Shown in pieces: positions 46,347-61,433 of a stretch of DNA of 64,000 bases. Within the stretch, counting starts at the first letter, position 1. Every line of letters starts with the position of its first letter. The notes below the pieces were generated by a model. The model searched no databases, was not told the DNA's origin, and saw only the letters and a list, made by a program, of their open reading frames with translations. Origin of the DNA: an uncultured bacterium (GTDB taxonomy: Bacteria > Omnitrophota > Gorgyraeia > Zapsychrales > Aceulaceae); the NCBI GenBank assembly GCA_937930175.1, contig CALGLP010000004.1, positions 2,163 through 66,162 of the forward strand, given 5' to 3'. The translations under genes and the position numbers were made by a program.

Positions 46347-46801
46347 CAGTCAGAGAAAGTATTTTGGAAAATTTAAAGATAACACTTGAGGCCATATCAA
46401 TTGCAAACGGCTATCACAATGACATTGCCAGCGTGCAAAGGTGGCGGCAGTCCGGCAATTCTCTTGTTTCAATTCCCTGCATTGTTATTAATGCCGGGCC
46501 CGAAGAAAAAGAGCCGGTGCCTAATCCTTTTACGACCTGTAAGCTTACCGTCTATCTCGATGTTTGGATGAGGCAGGCGCAGGATGATCCGCAGTCAACA
46601 GATACGCTCTTAAACAGTCTTTTAGGGGATATTGAAAAAGCGCTTATGGTTGACTACACGCGCGGAGGTTTTGCCAAGGATACAAATATTAAGTCCAATG
46701 TCCTTTTTGAAACTTTAGAAGGCCAGCCCCAGTCAGGCATAATCACAGAGCTTGAGATAATTTATCAGCACAAACAAAACGATCCCGAAGTGTCGGGATA
46801 G
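46343..46801 (+). CDS. Tail terminator-like protein, putative
   Basis: 152-aa ORF overlapping the previous stop. Assigned by position only. Confidence 0.3.
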   Translation: MTVRESILENLKITLEAISIANGYHNDIASVQRWRQSGNSLVSIPCIVINAGPEEKEPVPNPFTTCKLTVYLDVWMRQAQDDPQSTDTLLNSLLGDIEKALMVDYTRGGFAKDTNIKSNVLFETLEGQPQSGIITELEIIYQHKQNDPEVSG

Positions 46802-46814
46802 AGGAGGTTAAACC

Positions 46815-47957: not shown

Positions 47958-47973
47958 CAAAAGGAGGAAAGCC

Positions 47974-48399
47974 ATGCTTACGGGAATTAATATTTACGAA
48001 ACCAAACCTTACAAGTCAAAACTGGATCTTGACAAAGATAACTCCACGGTTTTTCACGTCGGGCTTCTTGATTCTCATTCGAGGGCCTACATTGAGGATC
48101 AAACTACCTCTTTTGAATTCAGCTCCAAGAATCCGAAGGATCCGGCTAAGGCAAACATCAACGCCTCAAAGCGCAATCTCTTGGTGGTGAAGTTTGGGCT
48201 GAAAGGTTTCGACAACTTCCTGGATCCGCGCGACAGGAAGCCGCTCAAATTTGATACGGTCTCAACAGCTATAAACGGGAAGAATTATTCAGCAGTCGCA
48301 GATGAAATTATAGCGATGTTGCCTAAGGCTTTGATAGATGAGCTTTCGGAAGTGATTTTAGCCGAGAATTCTTTGAGCGAGGACGAAGAAAAAAACTAA
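47974..48399 (+). CDS. Tail assembly chaperone (gpG-like)
   Basis: 141-aa acidic ORF directly upstream of the tape measure gene. It ends at a slippery heptamer. Confidence 0.65.
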   Translation: MLTGINIYETKPYKSKLDLDKDNSTVFHVGLLDSHSRAYIEDQTTSFEFSSKNPKDPAKANINASKRNLLVVKFGLKGFDNFLDPRDRKPLKFDTVSTAINGKNYSAVADEIIAMLPKALIDELSEVILAENSLSEDEEKN

Positions 48400-48707
48400 T
48401 CCTGGCGGTCGGGCTGCATAAGTTTAGGCTCGACTGCCAGGCGTGCTCAGACGCTTTAAAGGTAGAGCGCGGCTGCGAGGAAGATTCGCCGATTGAAGGC
48501 GTCTGGAAGTTAAAGGACTGGGAGTTTAGGCGGTGTCCAAGGAAACTTGTTGCTAGGGCGAGCATTGAATATTTGAACGCGTATCTTTTTTTCGAGAAAG
48601 GATATCTGCCTAATCCCGGCGGCTGGTTAGATCAGCCGCTTAAATTTATCCAGGCAATAAAGATAATTGAGCGCGAGATTGCCCTGGCAAAAGAGAAAGA
48701 GGATTAA
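47974..48707 (+). CDS. Tail assembly chaperone frameshift product (gpGT-like; -1 shift at 48390-48396)
   Basis: The -1 frame is open from 48396 to TAA at 48705-48707 (103 codons: LILAVGLHKFRLDCQACSDALKVERGCEEDSPIEGVWKLKDWEFRRCPRKL...). It ends exactly at the tape measure ATG (TAATG). Confidence 0.6.
48390..48396 (+). promoter_or_regulatory. Programmed -1 ribosomal frameshift slippery site A_AAA_AAC
   Basis: An X_XXY_YYZ heptamer in the zero frame lies 1 nt before the gpG-like stop. Confidence 0.55.
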
Positions 48708-50251
48708 TGCCTACAAACAGAGAACTCGAAATCATCATGAAATTAAAAGACGAGGTCTCAAAGCGCCTGCAGGGGATTGAAGGCAATCTGCAGAAGTTTG
48801 CTAATTCCTGCAAGCAGCTTGGCGATACGCTGCGTAACGTAGGCAGAGAGATTGCCCAGGTCGGCCAGAACCTTGTTTTTATGGGCGGCGCATTGACCGG
48901 GCCTCTTGCTCTTGCCTTTAAGTCTGCAGAGAAATATTCCCTTTCCGTCTCAAATGAACTAAAACGCCTTGATAATGCCTTTATCGGGCTTCGTGTAAGC
49001 ATTGCCGAGGCATTAGTGCCGGTTGCGCATAAATTGGCCAATGTCTTTGGCAATCTGCTTAATCTCTGGAATAGCCTGACCCCCACAACGCAGCAGATGA
49101 TTGTGCAGACTATTGCCGTCACCGGTATTTTTATGACACTCGGCGGTGTAGTAGTTGCCTTGATAGGGCGCTTGATACGATTAGGCGGGCTCATTATTGA
49201 TTTAGTCGGCAAGCTTGCCCTGTTTGCCTTAGCGCATCCCTGGATTGCCGGGATCGCTATCGCCGTGTCTATTCTTATCGTTGTTTTCCTTAAATTCAGA
49301 GATGTGGCAGTGCCGGTCCTTAACGTAGTTGAGATCGGCGCGCAGATGGTCTACATCGGCTTTGTAAAACTTATTAAGTATCTCTTGGTGGGTTTTGACA
49401 AATTAGCCCTTGGTTTAGAAAAGTTCTATGAGGTCTTAGGCAAACTTCCCGGCAAACTCGGCGAGCCTTACAGGGAAGCTTCAGAGCATATCAAACGTTT
49501 CCGCGATAACCTGCAGGGCTTAATTAAAGCCTCTGACGCGGAGATGGACCGGGTAGGCAATAAGATTTCAAATATATTAGTTACCGGAGAGGGCAGCCTC
49601 GTTAAAGGATATGACAAAGCAAAGAACGCGATAAATAGTTTTATCGATGCCCTTAAGAATTTAGGCAAGGATATCAAGATTGAAGAGGTTGCGCAGAAGT
49701 TTGACGCAATTCAGTCTATGGGAGAAGGCGTTGCCCGGTCGCTGGGGAGCGTATTCAAACACTTCTTTAGTGATGTTTTTAAAGGCCAAATGGATGATGC
49801 CAAAGATTATTTTGCAGAGTTTGGCAACATGATGCTGGAAGTCTTGGCTGAGGTTTTGGCCAAGATGATTCTTGTTAAGACCATTGGTTCTATTTTTCCG
49901 GGCATGATCCCCTTCTTCCACCAAGGCGGCATGATATATCACTCTGGCGGCCAGATTTTACCTGTAAGAGCGCATGCGGGCCTTGCGCCTGATGAGGTGC
50001 CGATTGTTGCGCAGACCGGGGAGGGGGTTTTATCCAGGCGCGGAATGCGCGCATTAGGCGGGCCGGATAGTTTGAAATCCTTAAATGAAGGAAAACCCGC
50101 CAAAGCAGGCATAACCATAAATGTTAACCAGGTCATCCAGGCTTGGGATGCGCAGGATGTCTGGCGTAACCGCAAGATGCTTTCCAATGCGATTGCAGAC
50201 GACATTTATAACAACGGCAAGATCCGTTCGGTAATCAGGAGTTACACATGA
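48707..50251 (+). CDS. Tail tape measure protein
   Basis: 514-aa ORF with helical and hydrophobic central segments, in the position after G/GT. Confidence 0.8.
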   Translation: MPTNRELEIIMKLKDEVSKRLQGIEGNLQKFANSCKQLGDTLRNVGREIAQVGQNLVFMGGALTGPLALAFKSAEKYSLSVSNELKRLDNAFIGLRVSIAEALVPVAHKLANVFGNLLNLWNSLTPTTQQMIVQTIAVTGIFMTLGGVVVALIGRLIRLGGLIIDLVGKLALFALAHPWIAGIAIAVSILIVVFLKFRDVAVPVLNVVEIGAQMVYIGFVKLIKYLLVGFDKLALGLEKFYEVLGKLPGKLGEPYREASEHIKRFRDNLQGLIKASDAEMDRVGNKISNILVTGEGSLVKGYDKAKNAINSFIDALKNLGKDIKIEEVAQKFDAIQSMGEGVARSLGSVFKHFFSDVFKGQMDDAKDYFAEFGNMMLEVLAEVLAKMILVKTIGSIFPGMIPFFHQGGMIYHSGGQILPVRAHAGLAPDEVPIVAQTGEGVLSRRGMRALGGPDSLKSLNEGKPAKAGITINVNQVIQAWDAQDVWRNRKMLSNAIADDIYNNGKIRSVIRSYT

Positions 50252-50586
50252 GCGATTTCACGTATTTGCCGGATTTTCTCATTGATGAGGCACTTGAATA
50301 TAAGACGATTGTTTCGGAGTTTGAAAACGGAGCAGAACAGAGGCGCCGTAAATGGGCAAACCCTCAGCGCAAATGGACGCTTAGGTTTAATAATAGGACT
50401 CATACAGAAATGACGGAGGTTTCAGACTTCTTTAAGAGCAAGTTTGGAGCATTCATGGCGTTTACCTGGACAAACCCGAATGATTTGGTTGAATACACCG
50501 TGCGTTTTGTTGAGGACAGCTTTCAGTTTAGCCGCAAGGCATACGGCGTGTATGATTTTGAATTTGAATTTATCGAGGTGAAATAA
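50248..50586 (+). CDS. Minor tail protein, lambda gpM-like
   Basis: 112-aa ORF directly after the tape measure gene. Size and order are as for gpM. Confidence 0.55.
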   Translation: MSDFTYLPDFLIDEALEYKTIVSEFENGAEQRRRKWANPQRKWTLRFNNRTHTEMTEVSDFFKSKFGAFMAFTWTNPNDLVEYTVRFVEDSFQFSRKAYGVYDFEFEFIEVK

Positions 50587-51197
50587 TGCCGCGAGAGACA
50601 GACAGCACATTTAAGCAAGAGAAAGCCAAGCGCCAGAATTCACCGATATTTTTGTATACGCTTGAAAAATATGACGGCGTAAATGACCTGCGCTTAGCGA
50701 GTTTTGACGAGGATGTAATTTATAACGGCGTTACTTATTCGCGGTTTCCTATAACCCATGAGTTTGTCGGCGAGAATAATCAAGGCCAGATTGACCAGGT
50801 TAAGGTGCGGCTTGCCAATGTCTCAAGGCTGATCCAGCTCTACTTAGAGCAATTTGATTTTAGGGGCAGGAAGGTAACTATTCGTATGGTCTGGCTGGAT
50901 CAGTTATCTGATCCGGATGCCTTTATGGATGATATTTTCTACATCGACAGTTATACGGCAGATCAAAATAACGTGGAGTTTACTCTGACAGGAAAGTTCG
51001 ATGTTCTCGGGGTAGATCTTCCGGCAAGGCGCTACTCGCGGAATTACTGCAGTTGGAAGTTTAAGTCGCCAGAGTGCGGATATTCAGGAGCTGAGCTTAC
51101 ATGCAACAAGACAAAACAGAGATGCAAACAGCTGGACAACTATCAGAGATTCGGGGCGTTTCCGTCGGTACCGGCAAGGCGCATCTACGTGATGTAG
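50586..51197 (+). CDS. Minor tail protein, lambda gpL / BR0599-family-like
   Basis: 203-aa ORF with the C-terminal Cys cluster CSWKFKSPECGYSGAELTCNKTKQRCKQLDNYQRFGAFP, typical of gpL-type Fe-S tail tip proteins. Confidence 0.65.
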   Translation: MPRETDSTFKQEKAKRQNSPIFLYTLEKYDGVNDLRLASFDEDVIYNGVTYSRFPITHEFVGENNQGQIDQVKVRLANVSRLIQLYLEQFDFRGRKVTIRMVWLDQLSDPDAFMDDIFYIDSYTADQNNVEFTLTGKFDVLGVDLPARRYSRNYCSWKFKSPECGYSGAELTCNKTKQRCKQLDNYQRFGAFPSVPARRIYVM

Positions 51198-51601
51198 AGC
51201 AATATATCATCGACAAGTATCTTGGGTTGCCGTATCGGCACAGGGGCCGGTCTTTAGAGGGGCTTGACTGCTGGGGTTTCCTAAAGTTTGTCTATGCTGA
51301 CTTAGGCGTGAGGCTGTTTGATATTGAAGAACTGGAATACAGCAAAATCTGGGGAGCGGAGGGAAAGGATTATTTTAAAGAGCATTACTTCCATGACTGG
51401 GCAAGCGTTAAGGCGCCCGAGATGCTTGACGGAGTACTGTTTGTTAATTCAAGAAGAATTGCCAATCACGCAGGAATAATCTTAAGCAGCGGAAGATTTA
51501 TTCATTGCGCAAGGCCGGGCGTGATTATCTCAAGGATAAATGATCTCTCCTGGCAGGCAAGGATAGAGGGATTTTACAGGTTAAAAGACAAGATATGCTG
51601 A
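51101..51601 (+). CDS. NlpC/P60-family tail-associated peptidase (gpK-like)
   Basis: GLDCWGFLKFVY (catalytic Cys) ... NHAGIIL ... FIHC. The start is uncertain, because the ORF-track start overlaps the previous gene by 97 nt. Confidence 0.65.
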   Translation: MQQDKTEMQTAGQLSEIRGVSVGTGKAHLRDVEQYIIDKYLGLPYRHRGRSLEGLDCWGFLKFVYADLGVRLFDIEELEYSKIWGAEGKDYFKEHYFHDWASVKAPEMLDGVLFVNSRRIANHAGIILSSGRFIHCARPGVIISRINDLSWQARIEGFYRLKDKIC

Positions 51602-54600
51602 CTATAAGGAACATAGACAATCCGTTTAAACTGGAAGAGGCTCAGGTTAAGGAGGTCCCTTACTCCCGTCATAAGACGCTTCAGGAAGTTTTAATTGAGT
51701 CCGGGTTTGATTACGAGAATAAGCGCATTATTGTCAGCGGCAAGCGCATCGAGAATTTATCAGCATATCTTGATAATGAAGACGAGGTTACTATTATCCC
51801 GGAAGTAAAAGCGCCGGTGGTTGCGATTATCTCTGCCATAGTATCGGCAGTATGGGCCGTGGCAGTGGCGCATCCGTTCTTATTTACTTTTTTCGTGCTC
51901 TCCATGGGTTATGCCATTTATCAGCATATGAACCAGCCTAAGATGCCGGATTTTAATTTAGGCTCGGCAACCGGCATGGATGAGGGGTCGCCTACCTACG
52001 GCTGGGATGGCGTGCAGACTATCCAGGAAGTAGGAGTGCCGGTGGCAGTTGTTTACGGAGAACACAGGATCGGCGGGAATATTATCAATCAATTCCTTTG
52101 GGAGGATGGAGATAGCCATTACTTAAATGTTCTGCTTGCGCTTTGCGAAGGAGAGATTGAGTCAATCGAGAGCATTGAAATAAATAACAATCCTATTGCT
52201 AACTTCGGAGGAGTGACGGTTTCAAAACGATACGGCGCAAACTTTCAGAGTCTTGTCAGCAACTTCGAAGACCTGCACAATCTTTATCCGGTTAATGCCA
52301 ATCTGGTTAAAAACAACCCTTATGTTTACACTACCGTGGATTTAGATGTGGAAGGGTTTGAGATTCACTTAAGGCTGAATAACGGGCTTTACCAGCAGAG
52401 CCAAGGATCCGGCGATATCCAAAGTTGGAGCGTAACTTACAAGGTTGAATACAAGCTCCATTCAGAAGGCACTTATATTAATTTAGGCGAGACGACCATT
52501 TCGGAAAAATCCCGCTCCACAGTGCGCAGGGTGTTTCGCAAAGTCGGTTTAGGGCCCGGGCAATACGATATCCGGATCACCCGCACCTCAGATGACAGTT
52601 CGCTTTCACCGCTTCGGCAGGGTGATTTAACCTTATTTCAGATAGATGAGCTTAAGACTGATGATCTAAGTTATCCAAACACAGCTTTATTGGGCCTGCA
52701 GCTTTTGGCCACAGACCAGCTTAACGGCGGAACCCCGAATGTTACAGCAGTTGTAAAGGGCAAGAAAGTTTTAGTGCCGGACATAAGAAACACCGGTGTG
52801 GCGGTTAGCTGGGAAGATTATTATTGGGATGGAGGCGACTATCGTCTTTTATGTGACGATACTTTGCTTGAATGGGACGGCATAACCTATGTCCAGAAAT
52901 TCTCAGCCAATCCGGTATGGTGCCTCAGGGATTTCATTGTCAACAATCGTTATGGGCTGGGCGAGTTTATTTTAACCTCGCATCTGGATAACGCCTCGCT
53001 ATTGGAAATGTCGCAGTATTGCGAAGAGAAAGTGGCTGACGGAAAAGGCGGCTTTGAGAAACGTTTCAGGCTCGATGTCGTGATTGACTCAAATAACAAG
53101 GCGCTCGATATTCTGATTCAGCTAAGTGCTGTGTTTAACGCTATGCCATTATACAGTGCAGGCGGGATATCGTTCAAAATAGATAAGCAAACGCTGCCGA
53201 CTCAGCTTTTCGGCATGGGAAATATCGTTAAAGATAGCTTTGTGCAGAGTTGGAAGACAATCAAAGAAGTGCCGAATGTGATTGAAGTGCAGTTTACAGA
53301 TAAAGAGAAAAATTACCGCCAGGAAACCATTGCTTACATCGATGAGGATGCATTGGCTAACGGCGAGCCGATGCGCAAGAGCCAGCTTCGCTTATTTACC
53401 ACTGGCGCAAGCTATGCTATCCGCGCAGCGCGCTATGCCTTAAAGGTTGCCAAATATATTAACCGCTCAATTGTTTTTAAGGCAGGCATTGACGCAGTTG
53501 CCTGCCAGGCGGGAGATATTATTTCTCTTTCGCATGATGTGCCGCAGTGGGGATTTTCGGGCAGGGTAAAGGACGACTCCACAACGATATTAATTAAGCT
53601 GGACCGGCCTATGATTATTGAAGACGGCAAGTCTTATAAGATACAAATCAGATTCTCTGATGATTCGATTGAGGAAAAATTAATAACCTCGCCAGCCGGG
53701 ACCTATACAGAAATCGCCTGCCAGGCATTCACAAATACGCCGCAGGATTTTGATGTCTATGCCATAGGCGAAACGAATAAGGTCAAAAAAGACTTTAGAG
53801 TTGTAGCGATTCAAAGAGAAGGCAAGAACGAGGTGCAGATTCAGGCCCTGGAATATAACGAAGCGGTTTATGACGATTCTGATATTATCCTGCCGCAGAA
53901 TAACTACTCTTCTTTATCAGGAGAAATTCCGCCCGTATCAAATCTTACGTTAACCGAATCCCTGGTTAAGAAGACTGACGGCACAATTGAAAACGCGATT
54001 GATGTTTGGTTTGACCGGCCGGTGTATGTCGACCACTATGTCAAGTCCTTTGCCAAGGCAAAAATATATTTAAGCGATGACGGCGGCTTAAGCTGGGGTG
54101 CAAGAGGCGAAACAACCGGCTCATATTTCCGCATTATCGGCGATATTGTTGACCGGCACACCTATAAGGTTAAAGTCACATCGCTTACAGATATGGATGA
54201 GGAAAGCTCTCTTGTGACAGCGCCTGAATCCTCAATTACTGTTGTGGGCAAATCTGCCCCGCCAAGCGATGTTTCGACTTTCTTGGTTAACCAGAACAGG
54301 GATCAAATTTATTTCGGCTGGAGCGAGATCCCGGATGTGGACGTTTGGGGATACGAAATCAGGCGCGGAGTAGACTGGGAAAGCGGAGAGGTAATAACAT
54401 TTCAGCAGGGAACACACTATCTTACTACGGGTCTTAAGAAAGGCATTGATCAGAAATTTTGGATCAAGGCAATTGATACTTCCGGTAACTATTCTGAAAA
54501 CCCTACAGAATCAGTCCTTACTGTAGGTGAGATCCCGTTTAGGAACGTAATTGCTGAATATCAGGAGCATCCATTATGGGAAGGCGTAAAGACAAATCTT

Positions 54601-55215
54601 GAGGTCAGTTTTGAGACGCTGGTAATTTCCGACGGATTCCTTTCCGGAGAATATGATACGCCTGTCCGGGATATCGGCTATGTGGCAGCTGCCTTTATTG
54701 AGATAGAGGCAATCGTTTCTCTGTCAACAGGCAGAAGGTTTAACAGCGACCCGGACGCACGGTTTAACGACAGCCTGTCTTACCGGTTTACCGGCCAAGA
54801 GACGCAGAATGTGGCCAATTTTAAGATACGGTTGTCCGAAGACAATATCAACTGGTCCGAGTGGGCAGATTATCAGCCGGGGGATTATTATTGTCGGTAC
54901 TTTCAGCTTAAGATGATTTTAACGCGCGCAAACCTGGGTGACTATGTGACGTGCTCAACCCTGCAATATCTTGCAGACCTTCCTGATGTGGATGATTTCG
55001 GAAGCGATGCAGTAGCGGACGCAAACGAGGGGAAAGAGGTATTTTTTACCAAAACTTATCACGAGGAGCCGAATGTGCATATTGAGATAACTTCCGGAGG
55101 AGGCGTTTATACGCAGTTTGTTGATAAGTCTACGACGAGTTTTAAGGTCAAGTTATTCAATGCTCAAGGTGCCGCGCAGACAGGTACTTTTGACTGGCAT
55201 AGCCATGGAGTTTAA
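51595..55215 (+). CDS. Host specificity / central tail fibre protein, lambda gpJ-like
   Basis: 1206-aa ORF following the M/L/K-like genes, with an N-terminal TM-like stretch and a large beta-rich body. Confidence 0.8.
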   Translation: MLTIRNIDNPFKLEEAQVKEVPYSRHKTLQEVLIESGFDYENKRIIVSGKRIENLSAYLDNEDEVTIIPEVKAPVVAIISAIVSAVWAVAVAHPFLFTFFVLSMGYAIYQHMNQPKMPDFNLGSATGMDEGSPTYGWDGVQTIQEVGVPVAVVYGEHRIGGNIINQFLWEDGDSHYLNVLLALCEGEIESIESIEINNNPIANFGGVTVSKRYGANFQSLVSNFEDLHNLYPVNANLVKNNPYVYTTVDLDVEGFEIHLRLNNGLYQQSQGSGDIQSWSVTYKVEYKLHSEGTYINLGETTISEKSRSTVRRVFRKVGLGPGQYDIRITRTSDDSSLSPLRQGDLTLFQIDELKTDDLSYPNTALLGLQLLATDQLNGGTPNVTAVVKGKKVLVPDIRNTGVAVSWEDYYWDGGDYRLLCDDTLLEWDGITYVQKFSANPVWCLRDFIVNNRYGLGEFILTSHLDNASLLEMSQYCEEKVADGKGGFEKRFRLDVVIDSNNKALDILIQLSAVFNAMPLYSAGGISFKIDKQTLPTQLFGMGNIVKDSFVQSWKTIKEVPNVIEVQFTDKEKNYRQETIAYIDEDALANGEPMRKSQLRLFTTGASYAIRAARYALKVAKYINRSIVFKAGIDAVACQAGDIISLSHDVPQWGFSGRVKDDSTTILIKLDRPMIIEDGKSYKIQIRFSDDSIEEKLITSPAGTYTEIACQAFTNTPQDFDVYAIGETNKVKKDFRVVAIQREGKNEVQIQALEYNEAVYDDSDIILPQNNYSSLSGEIPPVSNLTLTESLVKKTDGTIENAIDVWFDRPVYVDHYVKSFAKAKIYLSDDGGLSWGARGETTGSYFRIIGDIVDRHTYKVKVTSLTDMDEESSLVTAPESSITVVGKSAPPSDVSTFLVNQNRDQIYFGWSEIPDVDVWGYEIRRGVDWESGEVITFQQGTHYLTTGLKKGIDQKFWIKAIDTSGNYSENPTESVLTVGEIPFRNVIAEYQEHPLWEGVKTNLEVSFETLVISDGFLSGEYDTPVRDIGYVAAAFIEIEAIVSLSTGRRFNSDPDARFNDSLSYRFTGQETQNVANFKIRLSEDNINWSEWADYQPGDYYCRYFQLKMILTRANLGDYVTCSTLQYLADLPDVDDFGSDAVADANEGKEVFFTKTYHEEPNVHIEITSGGGVYTQFVDKSTTSFKVKLFNAQGAAQTGTFDWHSHGV

Positions 55216-55217
55216 GA

Positions 55218-55433
55218 ATGGGTAAGAAACTGATACCGAGTAAAGTGATTATCGAGTTTGATAACGGCGCTTTTGTAAGCGGCGTTATTCTTTATAAAGT
55301 AAATGACAGCGGTGAAATAAGCCGGGTAAAAACAATCGGGATTAAGAATGCTGATTTCAGCAAACCGCTACTTAACGGGCTGCTACAAAAGTTTATTAAG
55401 CATGCGGAAAGCGCGGAAGGAACTCAAGAATGA
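55218..55433 (+). CDS. Hypothetical protein
   Basis: 71-aa ORF tightly packed after the gpJ-like gene. Confidence 0.3.
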   Translation: MGKKLIPSKVIIEFDNGAFVSGVILYKVNDSGEISRVKTIGIKNADFSKPLLNGLLQKFIKHAESAEGTQE

Positions 55434-55708
55434 TTTGCTCAAGATGCAAGCAAGAGATCCCCAAAGACATGGCCTATGTGCTGATAAGGGGAAGCATTAT
55501 TTTGCGTACTCCCAAAAAGCGGCCTTTAGTCTTTACCTGCATTGAGCAGGCATTTAATTACGCGCAAGCCTTATTTATGCACGATGTCTGCTGGATTGAG
55601 ACTTTGCGGGAGTACGGGTTAGAGCTTTATGACATGAATAAGGTCGCAGAACAATATAAGAATATGGAGGTGTCCGATGGCTTGGGACAAGACAAAGCCG
55701 GAAAATGA
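55430..55708 (+). CDS. Hypothetical Cys-containing protein
   Basis: 92-aa ORF with an N-terminal CSRCK motif, overlapping its neighbours. Confidence 0.3.
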   Translation: MICSRCKQEIPKDMAYVLIRGSIILRTPKKRPLVFTCIEQAFNYAQALFMHDVCWIETLREYGLELYDMNKVAEQYKNMEVSDGLGQDKAGK

Positions 55709-56249
55709 CATGCTTTTAATTAACTTCCCGGCTGCCTGCAGGGCAAACTGGGAAGCCTTAGAGTTAGGCACGGACCCGAATCTTTTAATTACGAATGCCA
55801 AGGTAGCGCCCGGGGCCGGAATTGAAGACACAAAGCTGGCACAGATAGTCACGCCGAATAAGGTGAGCGGCGCAGCTTTGACCGGCCTGGCAAGCATACC
55901 TTCTGCAGCCGGGGTCCTGCCGGAGGCGAATTCTCCTAATAAGCTGAAAGCCGATGTCAGTGATACAACGCCGGAGTATTTAGACGGGCTTATCGATACT
56001 TTGGTGTTTCAGATTTCAGGAAGCGATAAGCTGCAGCTAAAAGACGGCGGAGTCGGCACTGAAAAGCTGGAAGGAGGCGCAGCTTCTCCGGGGAATAACA
56101 AATGTTACGGAACCAATGCAGGCGGTGCCAAGGGGTTTTATGAGACTATCCCTGTTCACCTTGATTCAGTTCAAGACGGCCAGGGATTAAGATATAGCAG
56201 CGCCAATTCAAGGTTTGAGAACGCGCCGCCCAGAGCGGTATACGCATAA
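55677..56249 (+). CDS. Tail-fibre-like protein
   Basis: 190-aa ORF with the N-terminus MAWDKTKPENDMLLINFPAACRANWEAL and repeated I..(T/A)KLA....KVSGAAL-type segments, as seen in phage fibre N-termini. This is recognition only. Confidence 0.4.
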   Translation: MAWDKTKPENDMLLINFPAACRANWEALELGTDPNLLITNAKVAPGAGIEDTKLAQIVTPNKVSGAALTGLASIPSAAGVLPEANSPNKLKADVSDTTPEYLDGLIDTLVFQISGSDKLQLKDGGVGTEKLEGGAASPGNNKCYGTNAGGAKGFYETIPVHLDSVQDGQGLRYSSANSRFENAPPRAVYA

Positions 56250-56258
56250 AGGAAACAC

Positions 56259-56834
56259 ATGGGAAATTATACAAGCGGGCCCCCGAAAAGCTCCGGAGGA
56301 AATCCAGTACCTACAACATGGACGGACGATCCATTAGTTCAGGATGTTACGCCTATTAAAAAGACGCACATTGTAGAGCTACGGGCTTGTTTAGAAGCCT
56401 TAGACGGCCATTATCATGTATTCAATGGGAACAATTCAAACGCGGAAGTGCCGGATGTATCTGTGGCATGGGCAGAATCAAATGCGCAGCTTATTGTGGA
56501 TGAAACGCCGCCGAAGGCATCGCATACTAATGAGGTTATAAATTTTATCAAGGCCTTTAATGGTCACTACCATTATGTGCCAGCATACAGCATTAATTCC
56601 AACGCCTTTGCGCCCGGTTTTGCTTTTGAGGACGACCCGGTTACAGCGCTTGTTACATGGATCAAGGCATCGGCTCACGAACAATTAAGAAGCCATTTAG
56701 AAAGCTTGGCAGGGCATACGCATATAGTCTGCTGTGAATGCGAATGCACCTGCACTTGTACCTGCACGTGTACTTGTACCTGCACCTGCACCTGCCAGGA
56801 GCAGTGCTGCAGCGAATGCGATTGCGGAGATTAA
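56259..56834 (+). CDS. Fibre-module protein with three His-rich helical repeats and a 16-Cys C-terminal tail containing (Thr-Cys)x8
   Basis: 191-aa ORF ending HIVCCECECTCTCTCTCTCTCTCTCQEQCCSECDCGD. There are three copies of a ~20-residue K..H..EL(R)..LE.L.GH.H unit. Its stop lies 1 nt before the radical SAM gene ATG. Confidence 0.6.
   Translation: MGNYTSGPPKSSGGNPVPTTWTDDPLVQDVTPIKKTHIVELRACLEALDGHYHVFNGNNSNAEVPDVSVAWAESNAQLIVDETPPKASHTNEVINFIKAFNGHYHYVPAYSINSNAFAPGFAFEDDPVTALVTWIKASAHEQLRSHLESLAGHTHIVCCECECTCTCTCTCTCTCTCTCQEQCCSECDCGD
56748..56795 (+). repeat. Imperfect hexanucleotide tandem repeat (ACN-TGY)x8 encoding (Thr-Cys)x8
   Basis: acc tgc act tgt acc tgc acg tgt act tgt acc tgc acc tgc acc tgc. 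Confidence 0.9.
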
Positions 56835-56835
56835 A

Positions 56836-58122
56836 ATGAAGCCAAAATCTGCCTATATTTTTGTGACTAATAAATGCAACCTGCGCTGTAAATATTGCTA
56901 TGAAGAAAACCGCACCGGAGATATGACACCGGAAACTATGGTTGCGGCCATAGACTGGCTGGTAAGCCATTATGAAAAAGAAATGTTTGCCCGGCCTTTT
57001 GAAAGCCTGACCTTTACATTCTTTGGCGGAGAACCGCTTCTTAATTTTCCGACAGTCAGGGCTGGTATAGATTACCTGCGGGGCATATGCGATAAGCTTA
57101 ATTTTAAGGCAGGAATCCACATTTTATCAAACGGGACGGTATTTACAGATGAGATGACAGAGTATTTTAAGAACATTCGTCAATACAATAATTTCAACTG
57201 GCACTTTCAGGTGTCATTGGACGGCTGCGAGGAAACGCACAACGCTAACAGGGTATTTGCCAATGATGAGGGAAGCTATAAGGTTATTTCAGAAAACATA
57301 AAAAAGATCAGGGAAATTTTCAAAAGCGTAGGCGTGCGCATGACCGTTACGCCGGAGAATATAAAATCACTTTCAAAAGATTTTGAGGCTTTGCTTTCTT
57401 TTGGCACGCCTGTGACTAACCTTACGCCTATTGTAGAAGGCGACTGGAATGATGAGGTGATCGGCACATTCATAGATGAGCTTAAAAAATGCATTGAGCT
57501 GTATTACCGAAAAGGCCATAACCAGTATTTTAATTATCTGCACCATTCTTTGGAGAGGATAGTGGACAATTCATTTAACCGGCAGAAGGGCTGCAGGGCA
57601 GGGGAATTCTTGATAGGTATTTCAACTGAGGGCAAGATCTATCCTTGCCACAGATTTGTCGCCTATTCTAAGAAAGATGACTTTTGCCTGGGCGATGTCT
57701 GGAAAGGTATAGACGAAAACGGCGAGGCGTTTAAGAAAATAAAAGAAATGCGTCAGAGGGCAGTTAAGTGTTTAAACTGCAAGGTGTTTTCCTGTAACAG
57801 GTGTTTTGCAACAAATATGTACTTGAATCAGGATCCCGCGGCGATTCCCGACAACGGGTACTGCGAAATGAACGAAAAGATATCAAGCGCCTTGCGGCCG
57901 ATAATAAGGAGGTTGTTTGTGGAAGGAAAATTACCGCTTAAAGAAGGCGAAATGGCAGATCTAAAAGATAATGGTGTTATGTATAAGATAAGTAAAGACG
58001 AGCCTGCGGAGCTTGTAGAGGACAAGTTAGATGTAATGGCCCGCTGTATGATCCGCGTGGTGAAAGAACTGCAAGAGGTAAAGTCAGCGCTGTCTTTGCT
58101 TGCATCGAGGCATAAGGATTAA
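56836..58122 (+). CDS. Radical SAM enzyme with C-terminal SPASM-type auxiliary Fe-S domain (peptide-maturase/anSME-like)
   Basis: 428 aa from ATG 56836, with a GGAG RBS 6 nt upstream. Motifs: CNLRCKYC (CX3CX2C, 56875-56898), FFGGEPLL, and a C-terminal Cys cluster GCRAGE...YPCHRF...CLNCKVFSCNRCFATN...GYCEMN. Confidence 0.8.
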   Translation: MKPKSAYIFVTNKCNLRCKYCYEENRTGDMTPETMVAAIDWLVSHYEKEMFARPFESLTFTFFGGEPLLNFPTVRAGIDYLRGICDKLNFKAGIHILSNGTVFTDEMTEYFKNIRQYNNFNWHFQVSLDGCEETHNANRVFANDEGSYKVISENIKKIREIFKSVGVRMTVTPENIKSLSKDFEALLSFGTPVTNLTPIVEGDWNDEVIGTFIDELKKCIELYYRKGHNQYFNYLHHSLERIVDNSFNRQKGCRAGEFLIGISTEGKIYPCHRFVAYSKKDDFCLGDVWKGIDENGEAFKKIKEMRQRAVKCLNCKVFSCNRCFATNMYLNQDPAAIPDNGYCEMNEKISSALRPIIRRLFVEGKLPLKEGEMADLKDNGVMYKISKDEPAELVEDKLDVMARCMIRVVKELQEVKSALSLLASRHKD

Positions 58123-58125
58123 GCT

Positions 58126-59478
58126 ATGAAGTATTTATGCATCGTTCCATATGAATATACCACTATAACGATGATGTACCGGAATTCTCCGGTCGGCATC
58201 TATAAGGTTGCCACAAAACTGCGCAGAGAAGGCCATACTGTAGAGCTTTTTAACATGTACCCTCTTTACCGCCCGAGAAAGTTTATGGAGAATAAGCCGG
58301 GCGCGATGTATTTCAAGGGCATACCTGTATCTCAATTTATCGGTTATAAGAAGTGCGGTAATTTCGAGAACGAGAAATTATGCAGGGAGTTTCACAGGCT
58401 GGGACTGCCAATATCAGAACTTACGAAAAAGTTAGAGGAGTTTCAGCCTGACAGGATATTTGTTGGCAATACCTTTACTTTTCTCTGGAGGGCAGTTTAT
58501 GAGATCGTAGCCGAATGCAAAAAGACGATGCCTAAGGTTCCGGTAAAGGTCGGCGGGCTATATGCTATTCTTTGTCCGGATCATGCTGCAGCATCGGGTG
58601 CCGACGAAGTCATGACCCTGGAAGAAAAGACTACGAGCGATAACTTTATCAAAATAGATACGGATTTATTCGGTGATAACCTTCCAGAGAGGATATTTTT
58701 AGGGACCTCGGTAGGCTGCCCCAATCATTGCTCATATTGCGCTGTTCATATTGTAGAGGGCTGCACAAAGGTAAACACCAGCCCGGATGAAGTAGTAAGC
58801 GAGCTTAAGTATTATAAATCAATGGGAATAAGCAGGTTTATTTTTCTCGACGCCAATATCCTCTATGGATACGAGAATCATTTTAAAGTTATTCTCGATA
58901 AGGTTATCCAGGAAAACTTAAATATAGAGCTTTATTCCTACGGAGGAGTAGAGGCGCGCCTATTGACCGATGATATTGCAGAAAAGATGGTTAGTGCCGG
59001 GTTTCGTTCGGTGAATATTCCTATTGAGAGCGCAAGCGACATTATTATTAAAGAATGGAAGAGGAATTGCTTTGTTGCCGACTGGGAACAGGCGATGAAT
59101 GTTGCTAAGAGGCATTTTCAGCGTCTGCGTTCTTTCCTGATTATCGGCGCGCCGAATCAGACCGCAGAAGATATTAAGTCAACCATTGACCTGATTAAAA
59201 GCTACGGTGCAGAGGCGGTAACTCTGCCGTATACGCCGATTCCAGGTACTCCTGATTACGAGAAGTATAAGCATATCGATTTGGAGGACCTTAACCCGGC
59301 CTTTTATCCCTGCGCGCATGAGCGGATGAAAGCAGCTGATTTAGAAAAGTTTTACTCTGAAAACCGGAATGTCAGGTTTTGCTTAAGAGATTGGGATGAT
59401 GCTCAACAGAAAATACCGCCGCCCACAAAGACGATATTTGAAAGCGGACCGGCAGTAAAAACTAAAGGAGGGGATTAG
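58126..59478 (+). CDS. Radical SAM enzyme with N-terminal B12-binding-like (class B) domain
   Basis: 450-aa ORF with an N-terminal Rossmann-like segment (LCIVP...SPVGIYKVATKLRREGHTVELFNM) and a CPNHCSYC CX3CX2C motif (58717-58740). It starts 3 nt after the previous stop. Confidence 0.7.
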   Translation: MKYLCIVPYEYTTITMMYRNSPVGIYKVATKLRREGHTVELFNMYPLYRPRKFMENKPGAMYFKGIPVSQFIGYKKCGNFENEKLCREFHRLGLPISELTKKLEEFQPDRIFVGNTFTFLWRAVYEIVAECKKTMPKVPVKVGGLYAILCPDHAAASGADEVMTLEEKTTSDNFIKIDTDLFGDNLPERIFLGTSVGCPNHCSYCAVHIVEGCTKVNTSPDEVVSELKYYKSMGISRFIFLDANILYGYENHFKVILDKVIQENLNIELYSYGGVEARLLTDDIAEKMVSAGFRSVNIPIESASDIIIKEWKRNCFVADWEQAMNVAKRHFQRLRSFLIIGAPNQTAEDIKSTIDLIKSYGAEAVTLPYTPIPGTPDYEKYKHIDLEDLNPAFYPCAHERMKAADLEKFYSENRNVRFCLRDWDDAQQKIPPPTKTIFESGPAVKTKGGD

Positions 59479-59480
59479 CT

Positions 59481-59771
59481 ATGGGAAAGGTCATCAATCA
59501 CGAGGAGATAATTGTTGACGATATTGTAAAGAGCTTAACACCGTCGGTTTACGACCCGGGCAGCGGTGTGCCAGCCTCTTTTGCGCTTATTCACGCGGAA
59601 GGCGGGCCGATGAGATATTTCGTTAACGGGCAAAATCCTGCGCCGTCGTCCGGGGCACTTTTAGAGGATGGAGATATTGTAGAGCTTCCGTCAATTTATC
59701 ACATAAAGGATTTTAGGGTGGTTAAATCCGGGGATGATTCAGGAAAAATTACAGTAACTTATGAAGCATAA
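59481..59771 (+). CDS. Hypothetical small protein coupled to the radical SAM genes
   Basis: 96-aa ORF starting 2 nt after the previous stop, with a GGAGG RBS. Confidence 0.35.
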   Translation: MGKVINHEEIIVDDIVKSLTPSVYDPGSGVPASFALIHAEGGPMRYFVNGQNPAPSSGALLEDGDIVELPSIYHIKDFRVVKSGDDSGKITVTYEA

Positions 59772-59785
59772 AGGAGGCGTTAAGA

Positions 59786-60340
59786 ATGCAGCTGCATCTT
59801 AAACATCGCAAAGCAAGCAGAATAATTAAGCGGGTTACAGAAATAACTACAGATGGCGGGCTTCCAAAGACAGGCCAGACTATGATTTATCAGCCTGGAG
59901 ATGACGGGTCCTATCAGATGGGGTATCCGATAGGCGGCGTTCAAAGGTTTATTGACAACGGCGACGGAACAATAATCGATATGGCGACAGGCCTTATGTG
60001 GATAAAAGATCCTCAGGCAGCAGGTTTAAGGTCCTCTATGTATTGGTATGACGCAATCAATGCCTGCGAGAATTTGGATTATGCAGGCCACGATGATTGG
60101 CGGATGCCGAACATTAACGAGCTCTTGTCAATTGTGGATCATTCAAGGTATGATCCGGCATTCGATCTGATGTATTTTATACCATTCCCGGATACATGGA
60201 CGCCTAATTGGTCGTCAACCGTTTGTGCGCCTTGGCTGGACGGGGCCTGGTGTATGTATCCGTATGATGGTTACAAAACAGTCTGGAGCAGAATTAGTGA
60301 TATGTGTTTTGTGCGGCCTGTCAGAGGCGGTCAATCTTAA
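59786..60340 (+). CDS. DUF1566 (Lcl C-terminal domain)-like protein
   Basis: TGQT..YQPGDDG...FIDNGDGTIIDMATGLMWIKD...W.DAINACENLDYAGHDDWRMPNINELLSIVD matches the DUF1566 signature. Confidence 0.65.
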   Translation: MQLHLKHRKASRIIKRVTEITTDGGLPKTGQTMIYQPGDDGSYQMGYPIGGVQRFIDNGDGTIIDMATGLMWIKDPQAAGLRSSMYWYDAINACENLDYAGHDDWRMPNINELLSIVDHSRYDPAFDLMYFIPFPDTWTPNWSSTVCAPWLDGAWCMYPYDGYKTVWSRISDMCFVRPVRGGQS

Positions 60341-60354
60341 AAGGGGAGGCGAAA

Positions 60355-60537
60355 ATGGCAAAAGCTACAATTGAATATAAAAATGGAAAGAAAATCGTTA
60401 CCTATCCTAACGGCGAAAAGCAGGAACATTCCAAAGAAAGCCTTAAAACCGCGAAAGATATGTTTTTGCGGCATAGGCAGAAGATAGATGAGAATATCGC
60501 ATCAATCGATGACGATCTTGCAAAAATGACGGTGTAG
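60355..60537 (+). CDS. Hypothetical small protein
   Basis: 60 aa from ATG 60355, with a GGGGAGG RBS. Confidence 0.3.
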   Translation: MAKATIEYKNGKKIVTYPNGEKQEHSKESLKTAKDMFLRHRQKIDENIASIDDDLAKMTV

Positions 60538-60541
60538 TCAT

Positions 60542-60826
60542 ATGCATAATAATGGTAGCTGGACAAAATATATCACACCGGTTTTAGTGACGATTGCTAT
60601 TTTCATGCTCGGCACGATTATGGCACAGGTAAGCCGCATCGATGAGAAACTCTTTCAGCATTTGGCGAATGACCAGATACATATGCCGCGCAGTCAGTAT
60701 GTTTCAAAGGCAGAATTTGATCTGCACTGCAAATTCTTTGAAAAAGAAAACGAGCGGATCTTGAAGGCAATAGACGATTTAAGGAATGATTTAAAGGTAA
60801 GAAGCCGGGATGGAAGAAATAAGTAG
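60542..60826 (+). CDS. Single-pass membrane protein (holin/spanin-like position)
   Basis: 94-aa ORF with the TM segment ITPVLVTIAIFMLGTIMAQV followed by a coiled-coil tail. Confidence 0.35.
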   Translation: MHNNGSWTKYITPVLVTIAIFMLGTIMAQVSRIDEKLFQHLANDQIHMPRSQYVSKAEFDLHCKFFEKENERILKAIDDLRNDLKVRSRDGRNK

Positions 60827-61016
60827 AGTAAGGATTGAGTTTGACCTGCATGAGTATCGGCGGCTTGCCTTGGTTATCCGGGATCACAAAAGTCTGCTCT
60901 ATAAATTAAAAATGAACGAGCTGATCAAACAGGGCCTTATAAAAGACATGAACATTATTATAGGCATATTGGAAAGAGCCGAGGTTAAACCACAAAAGGG
61001 GGAGGTGGAAACATGA
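60810..61016 (+). CDS. Hypothetical small protein
   Basis: 68-aa ORF overlapping its neighbours. Confidence 0.3.
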   Translation: MEEISRVRIEFDLHEYRRLALVIRDHKSLLYKLKMNELIKQGLIKDMNIIIGILERAEVKPQKGEVET

Positions 61017-61123
61017 AGATGTTTATAGCTTTTACTTTGGGGAATATAGTCGGAGGCCTGGGAATGTTTTTTTATCTTTGGCTGAAAGGCAAGGTGCAGA
61101 GTGTCGGAAAGCGAAAAATTTAG
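61013..61123 (+). CDS. 36-aa hydrophobic peptide (holin-like)
   Basis: My translation gives MKMFIAFTLGNIVGGLGMFFYLWLKGKVQSVGKRKI. A GGGGGAGG RBS is present. It is below the ORF-track cutoff. Confidence 0.3.
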   Translation: MKMFIAFTLGNIVGGLGMFFYLWLKGKVQSVGKRKI

Positions 61124-61433
61124 TCTGCTTAAATTTGCCGGGAGTTTTTTTCAATTCCTGCCGTGGGTGAAGACGCTGCGTTATGCAGCCGGTATTGCGC
61201 TTGTCGGTTTTATCGGCCTGACAATTTACAGGGCATTCTTTATGCCGACGCAGACCACCAAACAGGTCACGCATATCATCGCCCAGCCTGGAGCACAGGT
61301 AACGGTGGATCAGAAGAAAGAGGAAAGGAAGCCCGGCCTTGAGGTTAGTCCTTTCGTAGAAGGCTATGGGTTCGTGGAATCCGACGAGCGCAAGGGCGCA
61401 GGCGCCAAGGCCGGGGTTAGGATTGACTTTTAA
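61101..61433 (+). CDS. Membrane-anchored hypothetical protein (last prophage ORF)
   Basis: 110-aa ORF starting at GTG, with the TM segment AAGIALVGFIGLTIYRAFF. Confidence 0.3.
   Translation: MSESEKFSLLKFAGSFFQFLPWVKTLRYAAGIALVGFIGLTIYRAFFMPTQTTKQVTHIIAQPGAQVTVDQKKEERKPGLEVSPFVEGYGFVESDERKGAGAKAGVRIDF

Follow-up and report, generated by a model that had tools for sequence, protein, structure and literature searches.

A (Thr-Cys)8 repeat in the Cys-rich tail of a prophage tail-module protein encoded beside two radical SAM enzymes in Omnitrophota

Related systems and the locus

The described systems which come closest to the locus presented here are the ranthipeptides, with PapB (freyrasin) and CteB (thermocellin/SCIFF), where the gene for a radical SAM (rSAM) enzyme of the SPASM type lies beside that of a Cys-rich repetitive substrate. 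The documented thioether links are Cys-Thr for CteB/Tte1186, Cys-Asp for PapB and Cys-Asp/Glu for QhpD (PMC8172795; PMC12373016). QhpD installs several Cys-to-Asp/Glu thioethers in QhpC, the gamma subunit of quinohemoprotein amine dehydrogenase, which remains a structural part of the larger assembly (PMC8172795). In the CXXX-repeat system a Cys-periodic repetitive peptide is found beside a SPASM maturase.

A different set of likenesses is found among phage tail proteins and metal-binding proteins. In the P2 spike gpV, three HxH motifs at the apex, symmetry-related around one Fe, form an Fe-binding histidine cage (10.1101/2023.02.25.529910), and HxH iron sites are also reported in tail fibres of the T4 gp37 type. 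Metallothioneins have dense C-X-C and C-C motifs and are of low complexity. The gp38 of T2/S16-type phages is a small monomeric adhesin of the fibre tip, encoded right after the fibre shaft gene; it has a distal low-complexity repeat with motifs rich in Gly and is not known to depend on modifying enzymes.

The locus described here lies in a stretch of 64,000 nucleotides from an uncultured Omnitrophota bacterium, which was analysed as a whole and is called the window. The window contains a lambda-like prophage (Table 1) with the order tRNA-Gln (32083-32156, the left end), serine-recombinase integrase, methyltransferase, terminase, portal, head, tube, tape measure, J, fibre module and right end. 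The nucleotide match of the prophage to the chromosome of Ca. Velamenicoccus archaeovorus LiM is 86.6% and ends at 61433, and the GC content is 46.4% versus 41.5% in the flanks. No att repeats of at least 11 nt were found at the prophage ends, which is consistent with a serine recombinase. The Ca. Velamenicoccus papers covered make no mention of the prophage or of the cassette genes. The cassette consists of the gene for a Cys-tailed protein and two rSAM genes. Its three genes are contiguous, and a 94%-identical copy is found in LiM, which is enrichment-cultured and whose genome is complete.

Table 1. Features of the prophage and of the cassette region (positions in the window)
Feature	Position	Strand	Evidence
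Lambda-like prophage carrying the cassette, ~29 kb	32083..61433	.	PHROG matches, tRNA, nucleotide match, GC
GpJ-like central tail fibre / tip attachment protein	51595..55215	+	phrog_31 6e-150; Pfam FNIII-A_GpJ, Phage-tail_3
190-aa ORF directly upstream of the tail gene, possible fibre shaft or partner	55677..56249	+	position, conservation
Gene for 191-aa Cys-tailed protein (three-repeat HxH domain and Cys tail)	56259..56834	+	ORF, homologues, dN/dS
Domain of residues 1-157, folded, with three ~50-aa beta-alpha repeats in tandem	56259..56729	+	AF2, invariant columns, internal repeats
Cys-rich tail CCECEC(TC)8QEQCCSECDCGD, presumed substrate of the adjoining rSAM enzymes	56730..56831	+	sequence, pLDDT, dN/dS
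(Thr-Cys)x8 block, imperfect period-6 array	56748..56795	+	sequence read, pattern match, TRF
Radical SAM/SPASM enzyme, 428 aa	56836..58122	+	Cys motifs, NCBIfam, PDB match
Radical SAM enzyme of the B12-binding-domain type (putative class B), 450 aa	58126..59478	+	Pfam, NCBIfam, motif
96-aa ORF	59481-59771	+	kept behind the cassette in related loci
184-aa Lcl_C/DUF1566-domain protein	59786-60340	+	Lcl_C 2.9e-25; conserved downstream of the cassette

As in the ranthipeptides, a SPASM enzyme gene adjoins a Cys-rich candidate precursor, here with 16 Cys and 2 nt upstream of the enzyme gene, and the residues interleaved between the Cys include known acceptors, Thr for CteB and Asp and Glu for PapB (PMC8172795; PMC12373016). 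Unlike them, the enzyme scores below the curated cut-offs, with 211 bits against 340 for PapB (NF047865), its best NCBIfam match, and 127 bits against 425 for the SCIFF maturase (TIGR03974), and it lacks an N-terminal RRE. The substrate is a folded domain of 157 residues with a tail rather than a short leader peptide, the Cys recur at every second residue and not with CX3D or SCIFF spacing, and no NCBIfam family matches the precursor. There is also a B12-type rSAM partner, and the cassette is found inside phage tail modules with no protease or exporter gene nearby.

The QhpD family (TIGR03906) is among the top matches of the SPASM enzyme with 129 bits, but this is below the cut-off of 453, and instead of a CTQ cofactor context with qhp operon genes the setting is a phage. 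Likewise the CXXX-repeat maturase (TIGR04115) matches with 145 bits, below its cut-off of 350, and the Cys period is 2, not 4. A variant on the same three-repeat module, P0117, does have a C-x3-C tail and an rSAM gene overlapping it. The curated family of CXXX-repeat targets, TIGR04117, was tried as well and gave E=0.27 for P0117 and no match for the window's protein; a link to that family is rejected.

The repeat and the selection acting on it

In the frame of the 191-aa ORF the codons from 56730 are TGC TGT GAA TGC GAA TGC, followed by the repeat, ACC TGC ACT TGT ACC TGC ACG TGT ACT TGT ACC TGC ACC TGC ACC TGC, and then by CAG GAG CAG TGC TGC AGC GAA TGC GAT TGC GGA GAT TAA; the translation is CCECEC(TC)8QEQCCSECDCGD*. 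The first-pass annotation had described the Thr-Cys units as varying only synonymously, with the last three identical, and a reading of 56748-56795 agrees with this. The pattern (ACNTGY)x8 matches exactly once, against 0.00 matches in 100 dinucleotide-preserving shuffles, while TRF finds a period-6 array with 8.5 copies and 80% matches. Through 56730-56834 the repeat is free of stops in all six frames, and the two spurious ORFs which had been ascribed to it are indeed present, one at 56734..58122 (+, 462 aa, GTG) and the other at 56662..57120 (-, 152 aa). Since the cluster of rSAM proteins includes 462-aa members, some gene finders evidently call the 5'-extended rSAM ORF across the tail.

Pairwise differences in the (TC)8 block, counted among 10 close relatives, are 288 synonymous versus 0 non-synonymous; 15 of the block's 16 third positions are variable but 0 of the 32 first and second positions. 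The dN/dS is ~0 for the block, 0.004 for the whole tail and 0.062 for the body of the protein. The reading frame is intact in 69/69 related loci, and the frame-breaking variants which the first-pass annotation had named as evidence against peptide-level selection were not found in any of them. An artefact or a non-coding repeat is ruled out by the dN/dS together with the conserved frame, and the substitution pattern indicates that the repeat is under purifying selection at the level of the peptide.

The peptide-level part of the earlier claim of selection for a Thr-Cys peptide therefore stands, but Thr is not fixed between the Cys when the whole family is considered. The interleaved residues in 47 family members are T 237, E 100, Q 58, D 31 and other 43, which means that T/E/Q/D make up 426/469 (91%), and the Cys positions are fixed. 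In this family-wide comparison the window's run of 8 TC units is the longest seen and the homologues have 2-5. What the family conserves thus appears to be alternating Cys with Thr, Glu, Gln or Asp between them, and not Thr-Cys as such.

The mixture of codons had been explained by selection for breaking up perfect DNA repeats. Such selection could act against slipped-strand mispairing, or the array could be a contingency locus tuned by slippage; we consider both very improbable. There is a weak trend towards fewer identical neighbours: 11 adjacent identical hexamers are observed, versus 18.2 expected from pooled codon frequencies (P=0.04, with sequences which are non-independent). Under the null which preserves composition, permutation of the codons within each run, the expectation is 15.1 +/- 3.2 and the trend is not significant (P=0.12), and in the window's own repeat the number of identical neighbours, 2 pairs, is not below expectation. 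The synonymous sites in the repeat are saturated (pS about 0.6), and the mixed codons look like ordinary drift at such silent sites under a very strong amino-acid constraint.

The length of the repeat does vary. Among 21 distinct CDS, (TC)8 occurs in 15 and (TC)6 in 6; these are the sole alleles in the window's clade and no 7-unit allele was found among the 21. The two alleles are scattered patchily over the gene tree, which would suit a contingency locus, but each has a deep synonymous divergence of its own. The loci L036 and L038 differ in their tails although their bodies are near-identical, a sign of old alleles recombining rather than of ongoing slippage. Since length changes are rare and give only 6 or 8 units, the array is not a freely slipping microsatellite; in addition its units match at 80% only, and a 6-nt unit stays in frame and is unable to switch it. 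As to the earlier suggestion that units may be gained or lost by slippage, an in-frame length variant does exist, but the window's run of three ACCTGC units is one synonymous T-to-C change away from its nearest relatives and shows no sign of recent slippage when compared with them.

The Cys-tailed protein, its enzymes and its neighbours

The 191-aa protein consists of two very different parts. The AF2 model has a pLDDT >90 for residues 1-160 and <50 for residues 171-191, and the tail is thus predicted to be disordered. The internal repeats have z-scores of 12.6, 13.2 and 3.0, and each repeat ends in an invariant HxH motif (H51/H53, H103/H105 and H153/H155), which gives six invariant His on a single chain. 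Only 2-4 residues separate the last HxH from the first Cys of the tail, and the last 34 residues hold 16 of the 17 Cys of the protein in C-X-C and C-C motifs. The CCECEC..CTC core of the tail is invariant or nearly so among the homologues, of which there are 46 with lengths of 168-207 aa.

No family was matched in Pfam, NCBIfam or PHROG, a sequence-profile search of the PDB gave nothing (best E=0.07), and so did tblastn against 50,697 GenBank phage records. The exact sequence is absent from the protein collection searched, for the window and for the LiM genome alike, and the literature searched holds no published description of the family. The same three-repeat module, then without the HxH, is found at the C-terminus of many large proteins; the proteins which contain it number roughly 1,500. 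It forms the end of a 664-aa protein whose gene is directly followed by a holin gene, which is the position of a tail fibre. A second copy of the module was sought in the window and not found.

The ATG of the SPASM enzyme gene is placed 2 nt past the stop codon of the tail gene and its Shine-Dalgarno sequence GGAG falls within the final codons of that gene, an arrangement which suggests that the two genes are probably translationally coupled. The enzyme has the rSAM motif CX3CX2C (CNLRCKYC, residues 14-21) and complete SPASM motifs with 7 Cys for two auxiliary clusters: CX12GX4C at 253-271, CX2CX4CX2C (CLNCKVFSCNRC) at 312-323, and C343. After PapB the next NCBIfam matches are the nif11, CXXX-repeat, QhpD, SCIFF and CcpM maturases, and the leading curated matches are without exception maturases of Cys peptides. 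PapB is the best match in three divergent lineages, in L005 with 178 bits and in L021 with 213 bits, below the cut-off there as well. The best PDB match is 5wgg/5why (CteB; 1.2e-24), and SkfB is also among the best solved relatives. The rSAM motif begins so near the N-terminus that there is no RRE in front of it; the alignment to CteB starts at residue 98 of the chain, and the ScfB, CcpM and HxsB profiles are matched from positions 81-101 onward.

The second enzyme matches Radical_SAM with 8e-21 and has CX3CX2C at residue 198. It reaches 23.6 bits with the B12-binding domain, below the cut-off of 32.1, and its best NCBIfam match, the PhpK family, gives 92 bits, below the cut-off of 600. A cluster mate is named 'B12-binding domain-containing radical SAM protein' by NCBI. 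This enzyme is co-inherited with the tail gene.

The linkage of the Cys-tail gene to the rSAM genes was counted in loci with at least 1 kb of downstream DNA (n=56). In 56/56 of these loci, which span at least four tail types, the gene adjoins a homologue of one or both rSAM genes, and the B12-type enzyme usually accompanies the SPASM enzyme. In the window's clade the 2-nt spacing is kept, and the pair of enzymes is retained even where enzyme identity has fallen to 31-35%. Further Cys-tail variants which carry this module (P0117, P0053) also adjoin rSAM genes. Two variants with a CLCNC tail (L027, L071) have 381-aa neighbours which proved to be mutually unrelated and not rSAM enzymes; the contigs of these two are too short for linkage to be judged.

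This linkage bears on the possibility that the tail is never modified and that it joins with the three HxH motifs in binding metal or a metal-sulfur cluster in the manner of a metallothionein while the rSAM enzymes act elsewhere. The density of Cys in the C-X-C and C-C motifs, the six invariant His just upstream and the iron sites of the P2 spike apex and of tail fibres are all in keeping with such a role. The window's protein has no sequence or fold similarity to the HxH spike and fibre proteins, however, and unlike in gpV the three motifs are carried by a single chain, a pseudo-trimer of three tandem repeats behind which the Cys tail follows. The tail also differs from metallothioneins in being attached to a folded phage domain and in its obligate linkage to rSAM genes; the restriction of the intervening residues to T/E/Q/D fits thioether acceptors, and metallothioneins need no such restriction. 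An unmodified metallothionein-like knot, which had been offered as an alternative reading of the tail, is disfavoured by this invariable linkage to genes of the peptide-maturase type, and we regard it as unlikely. It should be noted that metal binding and modification are partly compatible, as a cross-linked tail would leave the His site free to bind metal.

The neighbourhood of the cassette is that of a tail module. The Cys-tail gene lies inside a tail/baseplate module by fibre genes in the window, where it stands between the genes for GpJ and the Lcl_C protein, and in L001, L003, L005, L006, L007 and L072. The architecture is that of lambda J in the window and of the Phage_BR0599/NlpC_P60 type in L005 and L007, while L001, L003 and L072 have contractile baseplates. 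In L006 the Cys-tail gene directly follows a gene for an N-terminal tail-fibre anchor with a collagen-like shaft and no head domain. That gene holds the position equivalent to the 190-aa ORF of the window, which is 83-99% identical among close relatives and has no match in Pfam or PHROG. The tail module continues past the two rSAM genes (59481..60340).

The position of the gene is difficult to reconcile with a classical RiPP pathway carried as a phage moron. There the 157-residue domain would be a large leader and the modified Cys peptide would be cleaved off and released, as a toxin, a signal or a host-manipulating factor. The disordered tail behind a folded N-terminal part and the peptide-maturase-like enzymes beside it would agree with this, large leader domains have precedents, and maturases of the Nif11/NHLP type are among the matches of the enzyme. 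However, none of the neighbourhoods examined contains a gene for a protease or peptidase or for an exporter or transporter, no conserved cleavage motif is evident in the short segment which joins the last HxH to the tail, and the enzyme has no RRE. Moreover, the gene is embedded among tail genes in at least four tail architectures and not at a moron position, and the supposed leader module also ends a protein in tail-fibre position. A released peptide thus seems to us an improbable product of the cassette.

A proposed role for the tail

The explanation towards which we lean, by a small step beyond even chances, is that the repeat forms the core of a 34-residue tail with Cys at every second residue, carried by a small protein of the phage tail module, and that enzymes of the phage cross-link this tail at the tip of the fibre. 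In the infected or induced cell the disordered tail would be processed by the two phage-encoded rSAM enzymes translated right after it. As it lacks an RRE, the SPASM enzyme presumably docks on the folded domain; it would then bond the sulfurs of the Cys to carbons in the side chains of the interleaved Thr, Glu, Gln and Asp, giving thioethers of the ranthipeptide type as do CteB, PapB and QhpD. The B12-type enzyme would add a further modification, most likely C-methylation. The product would be a compact, redox-inert and protease-resistant knot or rod which is still attached to the domain.

The domain may cap or tip a trimeric tail fibre and take part in the contact with the host surface. In this respect the protein would resemble gp38: both are small, are encoded directly after a shaft gene, would cap a trimeric fibre and have a low-complexity distal repeat, but there is no homology between them. 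The data show the sequence features, the purifying selection, the confidence of the fold, the linkage of the genes and their place in the tail module; that the tail is modified at all, by which type of chemistry, that the protein enters the virion and that it has a role in adsorption is what we infer.

In its general form the hypothesis, to which we give somewhat less than even chances, states that tailed phages of anaerobes, seen first in the prophages of Omnitrophota, use rSAM enzymes which they encode themselves to install a thioether ladder and a further modification in the Cys tail of a fibre-tip protein. This would be RiPP-type chemistry on a structural or receptor-binding protein of the virion, would sit on a single-chain pseudo-trimeric His6 domain, and in habitats that are anoxic and reducing would provide a redox-inert replacement for disulfides.

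Should the tail be modified as proposed, rSAM cross-linking in the style of RiPPs would have a phage tail protein as its target instead of a secreted peptide, and no description of this was found in the searchable literature. Ranthipeptide-like enzymes would then have a new substrate architecture, in which a folded domain replaces the leader, no RRE is used and every second residue is Cys. This would also hint at a way for virions to retain covalently stabilised tips under conditions which disulfides do not withstand.

The Thr-Cys repeat and selection on the tail

The eight Thr-Cys units described in the first-pass annotation lie near the C-terminus of a 191-aa protein, here called the Cys-tail protein, and are exact to the base in the window sequence. 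The degenerate pattern (ACNTGY)x8 has a single site in the window and no match in 100 shuffles, and TRF scores the repeat as an imperfect array of period 6 with 80% matches. The protein has 17 Cys, 16 of them in the last 34 residues. Since the repeat is free of stop codons in all six frames, two long ORFs run across it, a 5'-extended, 462-aa form of the adjoining radical SAM (rSAM) ORF and a minus-strand ORF, both called spurious in the first-pass annotation. The extended form starts with GTG, crosses the Cys tail in another frame and is used in some public gene calls (e.g., cluster members P0189 and P0199). The exact 191-aa sequence is absent from a collection of 15 billion proteins, for the window and for the genome of Ca. 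Velamenicoccus archaeovorus LiM; the gene may have been called with a different start there, or missed.

Features of the window discussed in the text
Feature	Position	Strand	Remarks
tRNA trio Cys-GCA, Leu-TAA, Val-GAC	13363-14273		host part
Lambda-like prophage	32083-61433		complete, about 29 kb; GC 46.4% vs 41.5% in flanks
ParB-like N-terminus fused to DNA methyltransferase	36806-38113		435 aa; upstream of terminase; phrog_498 5e-104, phrog_620 7e-26
NlpC/P60 peptidase-domain ORF	51101-51601		166 aa; 5.9e-12; overlaps minor tail gene end and GpJ-like gene start; gpK-like position
GpJ-like tip protein	51595-55215		phrog_31, 6e-150
Cys-tail protein gene	56259-56834	+	191 aa; C-terminus IV-CCECEC-(TC)8-QEQCCSECDCGD
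Minus-strand ORF	56662-57120	-	crosses repeat
Extended rSAM ORF	56734-58122		462 aa
Eight Thr-Cys units	56748-56795	+	ACC TGC / ACT TGT / ACC TGC / ACG TGT / ACT TGT / ACC TGC x3
SPASM rSAM enzyme	56836-58122	+	428 aa
B12-type rSAM enzyme	58126-59478	+	450 aa
Lcl C-terminal (DUF1566) protein	59786-60340		184 aa; 2.9e-25; just after two rSAM genes and 96-aa ORF

The claim that selection acts on the peptide is upheld. Viral contigs, genomes and metagenomes gave 69 related loci, with some 50 different tail DNA sequences among them (some loci are one contig present in different collections). In all 69 the reading frame is unbroken to the stop codon, without the frame-breaking variation that the first-pass annotation had named as contrary evidence. 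Nei-Gojobori counts among ten close relatives that align without gaps (87-98% identical in amino acids) gave a dN/dS of 0.062 for the body (155 codons; pS 0.51, pN 0.051), 0.004 for the whole tail (36 codons; pS 0.63, pN 0.006) and about 0 for the (TC)8 block (pS 0.60, pN 0). All 288 pairwise differences in this block are synonymous; its variable sites are 15 of the 16 third positions and none of the first or second ones. The tail is the most constrained region of the protein, and peptide-level selection on it is very strong. In one close relative (L017, 6001-6603) a tail Cys is replaced by Ser (TGT to AGT) and the stop is lost (TAA to AAA), which adds 13 residues that run into the start of the rSAM gene; this copy may be in decay, or the changes may come from sequencing or assembly.

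Codon choice and unit number

The codon alternation is real as an observation, but its cause is ordinary. Selection of codons to break up perfect repeats, as the first-pass annotation proposed, is not demonstrable: 19 distinct sequences hold 11 identical adjacent hexamers against 15.1 +/- 3.2 under within-run codon permutation (P=0.12), and against 18.2 +/- 3.9 under a null of pooled codon frequencies (P=0.04, the sequences not being independent), and the window repeat, with two identical neighbour pairs, is not depleted. Drift at saturated silent sites under a strict constraint on the amino acids is enough to explain the mixture.

It is very improbable that slippage-related causes explain the codon pattern. 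The three identical units of the window (ACCTGC x3) are one synonymous change apart from the ACC TGC ACC TGC ACT TGC of the nearest relatives. Unit number does vary, with (TC)8 in 15 and (TC)6 in six of the 21 distinct coding sequences of the window's clade and seven units in none. The (TC)6 alleles are scattered across the gene-body tree, the silent-site pattern is particular to each allele, and two loci with near-identical bodies (L036 and L038) differ in their tails, which argues for old alleles moved by recombination and not for ongoing slippage. Across the family the longest uninterrupted TC stretch measures 2-5 units, and no run exceeds the eight of the window. The conserved features are a Cys at every second position, with T (237), E (100), Q (58), D (31) or other residues (43) between them, and a tail start, CCECEC..CTC, which is invariant or nearly so. 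The interest lies in the system owning the repeat rather than in the codon alternation.

Prophage setting and the linked radical SAM genes

The prophage runs from a tRNA-Gln and a 579-aa large serine-recombinase integrase through ParB-methyltransferase, terminase, portal, major head and tape measure genes, and also encodes a tube protein, an NlpC/P60 tail protein and the GpJ-like tip. Two small ORFs, a 190-aa ORF, the Cys-tail gene, the SPASM enzyme (its ATG 2 nt past the Cys-tail stop), the B12-type enzyme, a 96-aa ORF and the Lcl protein follow GpJ in this order. The last two are kept in related loci, and the Lcl protein probably serves this fibre module as a further receptor-binding part. 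The complete LiM chromosome (NZ_CP019384, 1904649-1917221) has a prophage segment of 86.6% identity, but the DNA on its right flank differs; the similarity stops at window position 61433, where the TetR and TolC-like host genes bounding the prophage start. No att repeats of at least 11 nt were found at the prophage ends. Other relatives are in Omnitrophota MAGs.

In tblastn searches with the two window enzymes all 56 loci in which 1 kb or more of sequence follows had at least one rSAM homologue beside the Cys-tail gene, and the SPASM and B12 pair is kept down to 31-35% enzyme identity. The linkage spans several tail types: lambda J in the window, DUF2460/Phage_BR0599/NlpC_P60 in L005 and L007, and contractile baseplates (gpV, PAAR, gp25, gp6, or Baseplate_J) with four or five rSAM genes, one intein-bearing, in L001, L003 and L072. 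In L006 a tail-fibre N-terminal anchor with a collagen-like shaft, where the protein ends, lies 12 nt upstream of the Cys-tail gene (phrog_1640 6e-30, collagen-like minor tail matches). The NlpC_P60 domain, a separate ORF in the window, is part of the large tip protein in L005 and L007. An intein that carries a LAGLIDADG homing endonuclease (Pfam Intein_splicing, LAGLIDADG_3) splits the rSAM gene after the Cys-tail gene in L003 (10589-12880) and L004 (3985-6309), and this distant homologous cassette has a free-standing LAGLIDADG_1 gene a few kb downstream.

Residues 14-21 of the SPASM enzyme form the CX3CX2C motif, and all seven Cys of the SPASM signature are present. Without exception the enzyme's best curated matches are maturases of Cys peptides, all under cut-off (bits/cut-off: PapB 211/340, nif11-type 146/519, CXXX-repeat 145/350, QhpD 129/453, SCIFF 127/425, CcpM 116/500), and PapB is also the best match of divergent partner enzymes in L005 and L021. 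Among solved structures the best match is 5wgg/5why (E=1.2e-24), which is CteB, followed by SkfB. Alignments begin at residue 5 of the window enzyme against about residue 98 of CteB and positions 81-101 of other maturase profiles, so the N-terminal RRE is absent. It is by this RRE that CteB and SkfB bind leader peptides (PMC8172795). In the second enzyme a radical SAM core is recognised (8e-21), together with a B12-binding domain that scores below threshold; its best matches, which are weak, are to class B methyltransferases.

Proposed fibre capping and tail modification

The Cys-tail protein has no match in Pfam, NCBIfam, PHROG, PDB sequences or GenBank phages, and no annotation of its family was found. 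Its 46 homologues (168-207 aa) share one plan, with six invariant His forming three HxH motifs. An exhaustive profile search over 1.84 billion representatives returned only about 18 full-length Cys-tailed clusters and some 1,500 proteins in which only the repeat unit matched; most have it three times, at the very end of a chain of 300-1,400 aa with neither HxH nor a Cys tail. One of these (664 aa) has a holin gene directly after it, a prophage tail-fibre position, and no rSAM nearby; the "leader" is therefore a module that also ends a tail-fibre-position protein. We see the Cys-tail family as this module turned free-standing protein, with three HxH motifs and a Cys tail gained.

We lean, a little beyond even odds, towards an rSAM-modified Cys tail staying on a fibre-capping domain; the sequence features are observed, and from them we infer chemistry and function. 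The folded three-repeat domain would stand in for a leader peptide as the docking site of the SPASM enzyme, which would join the disordered Cys/Thr/Glu/Gln/Asp tail by several thioether bridges into a knot or rod. PapB is indifferent to donor-acceptor spacing and to the identity of intervening residues (PMC12373016). The B12-type enzyme would add a further modification, probably C-methylation, and the tail would remain attached. It is unlikely that the tail is a RiPP cleaved off as a free product: the maturase-like enzyme would suit one, but no peptidase or exporter was found in the neighbourhoods of the window, L001, L003, L005, L006, L007 and L072. In its proposed working the system is closest to ranthipeptide and QhpD-type thioether systems; membership of the PapB, SCIFF and CXXX-repeat families failed on curated scores, missing RRE and period-2 Cys spacing. 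That an unmodified tail binds metal is equally doubtful; the likeness to metallothionein is in motif density only, and rSAM genes accompany the tail.

As a single-chain three-fold repeat the domain would be suited to cap a trimeric fibre (e.g., that of the putative shaft protein upstream). Its HxH motifs may cage one metal ion, by analogy with the P2 spike apex, where three symmetry-related HxH motifs do so (10.1101/2023.02.25.529910).

Small proteins with the same module have other Cys-rich tails (P0083, P0091, P0130, P0061, P0117 and P0053; loci L027, L071, L072), of CLCNCxxHCSCNC..., C-x3-C repeat or His/Ser/Cys-rich type, HxH missing in most. P0117 (C-x3-C tail) overlaps an rSAM gene and P0053 lies among five, in a Baseplate_J module. 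Phage tail-tip proteins targeted by rSAM enzymes may thus form a broader superfamily. We found no paper tying radical SAM maturases to phage tail proteins. A plausible rationale is that thioethers would serve as redox-inert disulfide replacements on virions of phages of anaerobes.
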